Assembly: GCF_000026545.1 (NCBI RefSeq)
Contig: NC_011603.1
Source: Escherichia coli O127:H6 str. E2348/69
GTDB lineage: Bacteria > Pseudomonadota > Gammaproteobacteria > Enterobacterales > Enterobacteriaceae
Length of the DNA: 64,000 nt
Direction: 5' to 3' (one strand)
Shown: in pieces, positions 58,038 through 61,000 of the stretch
Layout of the letters: each line of letters opens with the position of its first letter
Position numbering within the stretch: position 1 is the first letter of the stretch
Made by a program: the position numbers

Positions 58038-61000
58038 TCATTTCAATAAACCGGGCGACCTCAACCATCCCTTCCTGATTTTCCACTTTCCAGCGTTCGG
58101 CACGCAGACGACGGGCTTCATTCTGCATGGTTGTGCTTACCAGACCGGAGATATTGACATCATATGCCTTGAGCAATTGATAGCTGTCGCTGTCAACTGT
58201 CACTGTAATACGCTGCTTCATAGCACACCTCTTTTTGACATACTTCGGGTATGCATATAAGTATATATTATTATGATGCAAAAATCAGCGCGTAAATACA
58301 CATACTGTTATCTTACTTTTAGTAAGCCTTATTTATTTTACCTTGCGTTATGTTAACCAATAAAAATCAAAATCTGACTTATAAAAACAAACCGTAATTA
58401 TCGCATTCCCGTTTCCGTCAGATCCGACTTTCATGAATATCACAACTTTCCGGAAGTGTACCACGCTGTGAAAATCATCATATCACTGTTTTCCGCCCCT
58501 GCGCGGCGCATCATAGGTCAGGGAGATGACACAATATATAGTGTCATTAGCAGCTAAATTAAGCACTACATGTTGTGCTGACGGGAGATGGCGCTGTGCG
58601 GCGAGAGAGGAAGATCCGTGACTGACAGAAATCGGATCTATGAGAGAAGATAATGGTATATTTGCTTATTATGCAATTAAAAATAACTATTATTGCCATA
58701 TTTGCACTATTGCTATAAATGCACTAATAATAAGGTTCTATTGCCAAAAACAATCATCTGGAGATATTTGCCATTCACTCTCATCCATAACCTGTTAAAA
58801 GCGGCTCGGGTTCAGATCAATTATTTATTAACCGGTGATGGATAAAATGAAACCGGAACGAGATATCCCTAATATAAATGAAATTATGCGTAGCCTTCGG
58901 GCATTCATCAGCGACTGAATAAAGGTATCAAGGAATGTATCCCGTATTTGAGAATGGCTCATGCTGGGTCAAGGTCGATTTTCACCTTCATACCCGTGCA
59001 GACAAAGAATTTCGCTATGCCGGCGAATCCGACAGATATATTCGCGATTACGTCAATGCCCTCAAAGCGGCGGAAGTGAGCGTGGGCGTGATCACCAATC
59101 ACAATAAATTCGATCCCGGCGAGTTTAAAGTATTGCGGAAAGCCGCGCGCCGTGAAGGTATGGACCTGCTTCCCGGCGTGGAGCTGTCCGTTAATGATGG
59201 CCAGGCCGGCGTGCACACGCTCGTGGTGTTTGCTGATGAGTGGTTTATCAATCCACAGCAGACGAACCATATTGAAAGTTTCCTTACGGCCACGTTTGCG
59301 GGCGTTGATAATTTTGAGAATGAAAATGCCCGTTCAACAGAAAATATCACACAGACCATCCAGCGCCTTGACCGGTATGAAAGGGATTACTTCATTGTAT
59401 TTGCTCACGTGGAGGCCCAAAACGGGTTATGGGGCGGGCTGAGCCCAGGCCGGATCGGGGAGCTTTTTGATAATGACCTTGTCCGCCGGCGCGTGACGGG
59501 ATTTCAGAAGGTGATGACCCACGACCTGCGGGTCAAAATTAAGGACGTGCTCGGTGAGCGCTATCCTGCCGAAGTCCAGGGATGCGATGCCAAAACGCTG
59601 GATCACATTGGTGCCAGAAAAGTCGCCAGCTATCTGAAGCTGGGGGATTACAGTTTTGAAGCCGTCCGCTTTGCGCTGCAGGATTTTCCGCATCGCGTCA
59701 GCGGAGAGAAACCGGCCCTGACCCACAGCCATATCCGCCAGATAGCATTCGAGGGCGCCGGTTCGCTCGGTGGAACCGTGGTGAAATTATCTCCAGAACT
59801 GAACACCCTGATAGGGATCCGCGGCAGCGGCAAATCCTCCATCCTTGAAGGGATCCGATATGCCCTGGACATTCCGTTTGGCGAGAAGGCCTCTGACCGC
59901 GACTACAAAGAAAATCTGGTCAGTAATTTACTGAAAAGCGGAGGGAAAATTACCGTTGATGCCGTGTGCCGTCACGGACGGGCCTATCAGATAGTTCGCA
60001 TTTTCGGTCAGGAGCCGCAGGTCATTTTTGACGGCCAGGTCCGGCACGGGGTGGCGCTACGGGAAACGGTTCTGCATAAGCCAGTGTATTTTGGCCAGAA
60101 AGATCTGTCCAATACCGGTGCCGGATTTGAACACGATCTGATAGAAAAACTGGTCGGTGAGCGTCTGGCTCCCGTACGAGAGAAAATCCGGCAGCAGAAT
60201 GCGGTCGTGCTCGACAGGTTAGTCCAGCTTCGCCGTCTGAAAACATCGGGAGAAGCGCTCTCCGAATGGCAGGCGAAAGAGAAGGATGCGCAGTTCCGCC
60301 TGCGCTTCTATGCCCAGCATGGCATGGAAGAAAAACTGGAGCGTCAGACCACCTTCGGGCGGGATGAGCGCTATCTCAGCAGCAGCACTTCCCTGGCAAG
60401 CCGAGCGCTGGACAGTCTGCAGGACGGAATCAGGGAGACTCTGGACGGGCTGAAACAGGAGCAGAAACATGAGTCAGCACATAACCAGGCGGATATTGAT
60501 GATTATCGTGAGGGATATGACCGCTTTACGACTCATCTCAGCTCCCTGAACACCATTGTCGACGGTGCCCGCCAGATCCTAGATGAGCTCAACGTTAAGC
60601 AGCAGGCCTTCCTGCAGAAAAAGCAGGCGCTGACGGAGGAATTTGCCGAAATAGAACGTGGCCTTGCAGAAGAGCTGCGGCTAGCCGGGGTGGAAAAAGC
60701 AGATCCCGCCGACTTCCTGAAGCTGAAAGCCGGGCTGGAAGTTGCGGAACAAAAAATAGCCGAGTTGACCCGGGCTGAAAGCAGCCAGACGTTACTGGAG
60801 AAGAGTCTGACAGAAGCGCTAAACCGATTGTCTGAACTGTGGGTGGAAGAGTATCAGGAAATTGAAGCCGTGCTGGCTGCCATCAACCAGGCAGATTCGC
60901 CCCTGAAGATCGTGCCGTCCTTTGCGAGCGATAAAAAAGCCATGCTGGCCGTTCTGAAAGAAGCCTGTACTGGCAGCCGGTTGAGGGAAAGTACCTACCA

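Follow-up and report, generated by a model that had tools for sequence, protein, structure and literature searches.

The closest described relatives of the locus studied here are the rfsF/ResD system of plasmid F, the rfsF sites of the IncI1 plasmids R64 and ColIb-P9, and the crs/rsd system of the Salmonella virulence plasmid. In IncI1 and IncR plasmids, rfsF has already been described as a boundary at which gene sets were switched or acquired (PMC8004404, PMC9412624). In F, nt 45922 is the start of the RepFIA block containing the rfsF sites and oriV-1, an origin that requires RepC (PifC) and can be dispensed with in its absence (PMC4398462); in R64, nt 43,620 is the coordinate given for "rfsF to yfcA" (PMC8004404). 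In the Salmonella plasmid pSLT, expression of ccdAB and of the resolvase gene that follows is driven by the 300 bp upstream of ccdA and is autoregulated by CcdAB (PMC5065971). Here we compare these systems with the ccdA–trlF intergenic region of Escherichia coli O127:H6 str. E2348/69, using a 64,000-nt stretch of contig NC_011603.1 (the window, whose positions we use throughout) that corresponds to positions 37559–101558 of pMAR7, the adherence-factor plasmid of enteropathogenic E. coli (EPEC). The intergenic region (58222–58934, 713 bp) is 100% identical to pMAR7 (NC_010862.1, 95780–96492) and is composite. We consider it probable, at about 0.8, that it is the junction of two modules, a ccd–resD control and resolution module on the left and the leader of trlF, a PHP-ATPase gene, on the right, joined at a site-specific recombination site.

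The junction is marked by a 28-bp rfsF core, AGATCCGTGAC-TGACAG-AAATCGGATCT (58612–58639; full sequence AGATCCGTGACTGACAGAAATCGGATCT), whose perfect 7-bp inverted arms lie 14 bp apart (AGATCCG-N14-CGGATCT). AGATCCG-N12–16-CGGATCT occurs a single time in the window, with 0 occurrences expected by chance, and the core pattern is present exactly once in 19 of the 24 related loci that we fetched, namely F, R64, pSLT and 16 others. The first base of the core corresponds to F nt 45,922 and to R64 nt 43,620. F, the IncI1 plasmids and the Salmonella virulence plasmid share with pMAR7 both the 28-bp pattern and a region of about 200 bp on the recombinase side, and the order of F (site, ccdA, ccdB, resD) is retained in pMAR7. 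From plasmid to plasmid the arms of the core are conserved; its central 6–8 bp and the right flank vary with the cargo. pMAR7 differs from F rfsF in the central 6–8 bp (TGACAG in pMAR7) and in everything to their right, and it has trlF where F and R64 have pifC/pifA.

A ResD-type tyrosine recombinase, encoded on the minus strand at 56886–57695, would be the enzyme that acts at this site; it is 95% identical to F ResD, is annotated as a site-specific integrase and gives Xer/integrase-like NCBIfam matches. The ccdA antitoxin gene (58003–58221, minus strand, from the RefSeq annotation of pMAR7 and the ORF list) is the first gene of the ccdA–ccdB–resD operon, and ccdA, ccdB and the integrase gene, on the left side, are all transcribed away from the intergenic region. 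In the arrangement that we propose, the left module would consist of a ccd promoter/operator firing leftwards, about 200 bp of accessory DNA and then the rfsF core, at which the adjacent ResD would resolve plasmid multimers.

Alignments between plasmids break inside this core. Specifically, pRIVM_C039629_1 matches pMAR7 at 99.4% identity between 54222 and 58623 and is unrelated further right, and pS65EC, which carries the trlF module, is 99.9% identical from 58623 rightwards and unrelated to the left of 58623. Furthermore, megablast alignment ends cluster at 58622/58623 and at 58639–58642. Breakpoints at 58622/58623 form the pattern expected of a tyrosine-recombinase core with its left cleavage point there, and the crossover point in pMAR7 would lie at about this step, the comparative signature to be expected of exchange inside the core. 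The core would then also have served as the point where cargo blocks were exchanged between plasmids. The left flank of pS65EC carries a HEPN nuclease gene, and its junction (2360–2400, equivalent to 58600–58640 of the window) takes the form of a perfect inverted repeat (TCCGATTT-TGACAG-AAATCGGA), an arrangement that points to a secondary or hybrid site as the recombination partner.

A first-pass annotation of this DNA had treated 58282–58934 as one 650-bp AT-rich leader of the PHP-ATPase gene. This view has to be revised in three respects. The intergenic region starts at 58222, the ATG of ccdA being at 58221. Its AT richness holds for 58222–58400 and 58640–58900 (about 30–36% GC) and fails for 58400–58640 between them (42–48% GC). 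The left part, finally, is not a leader of trlF: in a megablast search, 3,456 plasmids match the intergenic region and only 15 cover at least 80% of it, and the left 420 bp or so are present in thousands of plasmids without trlF, so that they belong to the divergent ccdAB–resD module. The segment 58222–58640 aligns with F 45922–46339, the pifC–ccdA spacer of F, at about 70–100% identity in sliding windows from ccdA to about 58640, after which identity falls to about 35%.

Within the left module, the putative ccd promoter/operator region (58222–58300, minus strand) shows 81–100% identity with F in sliding windows. It contains a minus-strand promoter-like site (−35 TTTACG at 58296–58291, an 18-nt spacer, and −10 AATAAT ending at 58267) about 40 bp upstream of ccdA. 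Operator-like motifs, GTATGC/GTATAT, lie between the candidate −10 element and ccdA, and they are putative CcdA operator sites of the kind described for F ccd. The adjacent AT-rich spacer (58301–58408), part of the homologue of the F oriV-1 region, is 90–97% identical to F. It is common only to ccd-linked (F/RepFIA-type) plasmids and is absent from IncI/IncK-type and ETEC1749-type loci, in which another gene takes the place of ccdAB and homology is confined to 58396/58409–58640; the left breakpoints of the megablast alignments cluster at 58396 and 58409. Sharing with this limit delineates a unit of about 230 bp, conserved with every ResD-like recombinase, including RsdB of Salmonella pSLT.

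Most of this unit is the conserved accessory region of an rfsF/crs-type resolution site (58409–58609, the F rfsF/oriV1 locus), defined by homology across plasmids, present in more than 3,400 of them and common to F, pSLT, IncI and IncK plasmids and plasmids of Serratia, Klebsiella, Citrobacter and Edwardsiella. It contains AGATCCGAC (58421), TTTCCGGAAGTGTACCACG (58447–58465) and the palindromes GACAC-N8-GTGTC (58528–58545) and AGCAC-N8-GTGCT (58562–58579). The two palindromes, of 18 bp each, have the same design, lie 34 bp apart and are both kept in F, pSLT and the Serratia, Klebsiella and Citrobacter plasmids; it is possible that they are accessory binding sites of the resolution complex. The architecture is analogous to that of cer/psi-type Xer sites, in which a core is combined with about 180 bp of one-sided accessory sequence, and by this analogy the one-sided accessory arm in pMAR7 would suit selectivity for resolution only. 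The two differ in that cer and psi use host XerCD and pMAR7 a plasmid-encoded ResD, and in that the core arms of pMAR7 are 7 bp, inverted and 14 bp apart.

To the right of the core, 58640–58934 would serve as the leader of the cargo gene trlF (58935–61556, plus strand), whose 873-aa product, annotated as a TrlF family AAA-like ATPase, combines a PHP domain with an ABC/SMC-like ATPase. TrlF matches NCBIfam NF045780 over residues 7–867 (E = 1e-161; 540.7 bits against a curated cut-off of 350), and Pfam assigns AAA_21/SMC_N to it. The protein is related to the anti-phage protein Ppl, and its Ppl matches fall below the cut-off of that family; TrlF is probably a Ppl-like anti-phage PHP-ATPase. A literature search on TrlF found nothing relevant.

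The leader travels with the gene. The segment 58641–58934 is present in 146 plasmids, and variants with 72–83% identity stand upstream of trlF in plasmids of Serratia, Edwardsiella, Klebsiella, Citrobacter, Cronobacter, Shigella and other E. coli. Nine of the 11 leaders that we aligned adjoin an exact AGATCCG-N14-CGGATCT core, most of them with a ResD-like integrase 1–2.5 kb to the left. The exceptions are Shigella dysenteriae, whose left arm differs at one base (GGATCCG), and Citrobacter sp. Y3, which has no core. In the latter, homology begins only at about 58806 and everything upstream is replaced, which identifies the last 130 bp or so as the minimal unit retained. The cargo DNA opens with a purine-rich stretch (58640–58672, plus strand), and a GA-rich run is found to the right of the core in most cargo types.

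The first-pass annotation had also noted TATTGCC/TTTGC-type repeats in this leader and had suggested, among other options, a regulator-binding array. The repeats are real. TTGC occurs six times on the plus strand (58662, 58693, 58702, 58710, 58741 and 58768), and TATTGCY and ATATTTGC occur three times each, all on the plus strand; three of the seven ATATTTGC sites of the window fall within 114 bp in this zone. When 58641–58800 was shuffled 2,000 times with dinucleotide composition preserved, the mean number of TTGC copies was 1.37 and no shuffle had as many as six; an 8-mer in triplicate had P = 0.0085. A further TATTGCY cluster, at 31254–31706, lies within coding regions and is unrelated.

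Comparison with ten relatives resolves the repeats into two 24-bp dyads with the family consensus GCAATAAT-N8-ATTATTGC. The first, O1 (GCAATTAA-AAATAACT-ATTATTGC, 58673–58696), lies 33 bp from the core, with a column-consensus match of 0.90 and 0.95 in its arms and 0.65 in its spacer. The second, O2 (GCACTAAT-AATAAGGT-TCTATTGC, 58721–58744), lies 81 bp to the right of the core, at a distance of 48 bp from O1, with 0.95 and 0.91 in its arms and 0.72 in its spacer. Arms thus score 0.90–0.95, spacers 0.65–0.72 and neighbouring DNA 0.64–0.72. Because the arms are conserved and the spacers are free to vary, O1 and O2 look like protein-binding sites, and the comparison supports an array bound by a regulator as the best reading of the repeats. 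Most likely, O1 and O2 would bind a dimeric regulator of trlF transcription. They are the sole dyad matches in the whole of pMAR7, and the plasmid therefore gives no clue to the regulator. A scan for exact dyads in 100,000 genomes was uninformative, with about 120 matches in unrelated taxa, about the chance level for 16 fixed bases. Among known binding motifs, lambda CII sites (TTGC-N6-TTGC), the CytR motif GTTGCATT, the RepE iteron, NtrC/sigma-54 sites, the marbox, Fis sites and IHF sites presumably do not apply, since none seems to fit the spacing or the conserved bases.

It was suggested at the outset that in F the position upstream of ccdA would hold an origin, and this is correct: the F stretch that is homologous to 58222–58640 carries the rfsF sites and oriV-1 (PMC4398462). 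One could therefore regard the pMAR7 region as a replication origin homologous to oriV-1 (ori-1), with the repeats as its origin repeats or iterons, and AT-rich blocks do lie on both sides. Nevertheless, pMAR7 lacks the initiator that such an origin would need. When F PifC was searched by tblastn against complete pMAR7, the best E value was 0.076, and no pifC is annotated. With no PifC/RepC homologue in pMAR7, origin function is not expected at the region, even though homologous DNA occupies the same position upstream of ccdA. Furthermore, no rep gene is adjacent to the region, and the RepFIIA and RepFIB initiator genes of pMAR7 are located elsewhere. The TTGC repeats fall within the cargo part, F has no counterpart of this repeat zone, and the repeats form inverted dyads rather than tandem iterons, with just two tandem 17-bp units (58691–58724, 82% identical). 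A DnaA-box search of the window with at most two mismatches gave 226 matches against about 180 expected and was too noisy to use. On this evidence an origin is very unlikely.

A different assignment would make O1 and O2 accessory sites on the cargo side of the recombination site, where ResD or a host architectural protein would bind to shape the synapse. Their fixed phase with respect to the core is what recommends it. We scanned offsets in six loci (five trlF-type leaders and AR_0081, with +33 in Etarda and AR_0081 read by eye), and +33 and +81 were constant wherever dyads were found; +81 also holds in AR_0081, which carries another type of cargo. From the core to about 58780 there is no indel, although identity is just 60–75%, and AR_0081 and pMAR7 resemble each other significantly in their right flanks (z = 7.8; 0 of 300 shuffles). 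The comparison of right flanks, which took in AR_0081, F, R64, pSLT, an IncI-gamma plasmid and the RIVM plasmid, otherwise speaks against such a role. In F, R64, pSLT and the IncI-gamma plasmid, this core and its left accessory region are accompanied by no similar right flank (z of about 0 to 0.6), and the flank of the RIVM plasmid is not significantly similar either (z = 1.4; 25 of 300 shuffles). The dyad arms are also unlike the core arms, and F rfsF, which lacks this flank, is the experimentally defined site. We regard accessory sites as unlikely and favour operators of trlF.

Translation of the leader offers two further alternatives, one for each of its short ORFs. No ORF of at least 60 aa is present within 58282–58934, as the ORF list confirms. 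A 54-codon ORF had been reported from 58631, with a Cys/His-containing peptide that was quoted correctly; its ATG is at 58640, and it has 52 codons (MREDNGIF..., 58640–58798, plus strand). An open frame with an ATG upstream of trlF could encode a small partner protein of TrlF, as had been proposed. However, the ATG is missing in eight of ten relatives and the frame is cut by stops after 1–43 codons in all of them, the DNA being homologous nonetheless, and the ORF has no Pfam or NCBIfam match. Local conservation here stems from overlap with the conserved dyads. We conclude that this is a chance ORF and not a gene; a partner protein at this place is hardly credible.

The most conserved block of the leader is 58806–58934 (plus strand; column conservation 0.87–0.96); within it, GATC at 58815–58818 is invariant and AAAGG at 58921–58925 forms a Shine-Dalgarno sequence. 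This last stretch of about 130 bp probably carries the core promoter and the 5′ untranslated region (UTR), and most likely the ribosome-binding site of trlF. A conserved candidate promoter, ATGAAR-17-TAnTAT with its −10 element at 58870, is present in 11 of 11 leaders and is weak. At 58842/58843, the pMAR7-type leader lacks 2 bp (GG--AT) that are found in all ten other variants (GGAAAT); the loss shortens the spacing from a −35-like TTGATT/TTTATT to an invariant TAAAAT just before the short ORF described next. The GATC at 58815–58818 is a Dam site and is kept in all 11 trlF leaders, and another GATC lies inside each core arm; methylation-sensitive binding at these sites is conceivable.

The second short ORF, of 23 codons (MKPERDIPNINEIMRSLRAFISD, 58847–58918, plus strand), had been reported with the correct start and length; it ends 16 bp before the trlF ATG at 58935, and not 45 bp as stated. 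Its ATG is invariant in 11 of 11 leaders and the 23-aa frame is intact in 7 of 11. A translated leader peptide could control trlF through translational coupling or by blocking access to its ribosome-binding site, which lies 16 nt downstream. In agreement with this, all 11 relatives retain the ATG and the six opening codons (MK[P/S/Q]xR[D/N]), an ORF always opens at the 58847 ATG and either stops 16 nt short of the trlF start or overlaps it, and some changes are synonymous (CGA/CGG/CGC, AAA/AAG, CTT/CTC). The pattern of change is nonetheless not that of a coding sequence. Variable columns show no excess at third positions (10, 8 and 12 of 23 at codon positions 1, 2 and 3), and the C-terminal half is altered by a 2-bp deletion (three sequences) or by stop loss (one), with the nucleotides still conserved. 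The Shine-Dalgarno sequence of the ORF is weak (GGA only), and the 58847 ATG may instead belong to the conserved −35-like hexamer ATGAAR.

There is no terminator-like site on the plus strand, and no stable or covarying fold: the minimum free energy (MFE) is weaker than in shuffles (z = +1.69) and the RNAalifold covariation term is 0.14. An imperfect inverted repeat, ATCCATAACCTGTTAA / TTAACCGGTGATGGAT (58783–58843, plus strand), encloses a 29-nt loop. In the corresponding hairpin (58783–98/58828–43), 76.6% of cells pair in ten relatives, but covariation is no better than in column shuffles (204 of 500), and RNAalifold does not choose this repeat; we gave it no weight as evidence. An Rfam scan of 57500–59500 returned only CrcZ at 58357–58416, at 16.7 bits against a gathering threshold of 95 (E = 0.086), which we take as chance. 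Frame changes at conserved nucleotides, together with the lack of a terminator, fold or Rfam match, indicate conservation at the level of DNA or RNA. A translated leader peptide from 58847 is possible in view of the invariant start, yet we hold it to be improbable, if less so than accessory sites at O1 and O2.

Some observations weigh against the composite reading or against parts of it. The core centre differs among plasmids, and classical tyrosine-recombinase exchange needs matching overlap sequences; for this reason some swaps may be products of homologous recombination within the conserved left arm, or of illegitimate events. On the leader side, scans of the plus strand with consensus promoters give weak and ambiguous sites only, and the best one in pMAR7, TTGCCA-16-GATATT (58741–58768), has not been kept in relatives. 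No gene for a regulator accompanies trlF, and the half-sites of the dyads are unusually distant (8-bp arms with an 8-nt spacer). Finally, breakpoints, coordinates, homology and patterns of conservation, with the 52-codon ORF not conserved, are shown by the sequences themselves, and it is from these that we infer the action of ResD at the pMAR7 core, the promoter positions and the binding of a protein to O1 and O2.

The genes around the region include further maintenance functions. To the left of resD, 54635–56748 contains a parM-type segregation gene, a divergent ParA-like ATPase gene and a small ribbon-helix-helix-like ORF, a block that also accompanies ResD-like integrases in IncI/IncK-type loci. 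To the right of trlF, at 61755–62349, vapB (61755–61985) adjoins a vapC toxin gene that is broken across two frames (61982–62332 and 62074–62349); vapC looks like a frameshifted pseudogene, and the annotation table has vapB only. Downstream of trlF and vapB, on the minus strand at 62572–63375, lies a likely toxin–antitoxin (TA) pair made up of genes for a GNAT-family acetyltransferase and a DUF1778 protein, the third TA-type module in 6 kb besides ccdAB and vapBC.

The genes found to the right of the core vary among plasmids and mostly concern defence or competition: pifC and a pifA-type P-loop NTPase gene in F and R64, trlF in pMAR7, genes for a hypothetical protein and an S-4TM effector in AR_0081, a RES-family NAD+ phosphorylase gene in pSH275-2, and the colicin Ia region in the IncI-gamma plasmid. 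Like integron attI/attC sites and defence hot spots, pMAR7 has a recombinase-linked site beside unrelated defence or competition genes. Unlike integrons, it has no cassette array and no second flanking site, the core occurring once in the plasmid; a whole arm is replaced instead of a cassette being inserted, and each cargo brings its own leader, with no platform promoter. A more far-reaching proposal, which we put forward tentatively and think improbable as a whole, is that the rfsF core is an integron-like docking point for interchangeable defence modules, that the TrlF and the hypothetical-protein/S-4TM modules share a portable two-dyad control cassette (+33/+81), and that its regulator links the expression of defence to the state of the plasmid. 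Under this proposal, the regulator might possibly be tied to the recombination complex itself.

In summary, about 60% of the supposed leader is the putative ccd promoter and the rfsF/oriV1 resolution region, common to thousands of enterobacterial plasmids, and a housekeeping site should no longer be read as a gene leader. Most of this is known biology, that of plasmid maintenance DNA, and the advance is modest and lies in the details. The rfsF core and its crossover now have base-pair coordinates in the EPEC virulence plasmid pMAR7, and trlF and its own leader of about 295 bp move together among plasmids from seven genera, the leader nearly always adjoining the core. The two phased, conserved dyads in that leader provide a handle for finding the control of a Ppl/TrlF-type defence gene. 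The overall pattern adds to published indications, obtained with IncI1 and IncR plasmids, that accessory and defence genes are repeatedly exchanged at rfsF.

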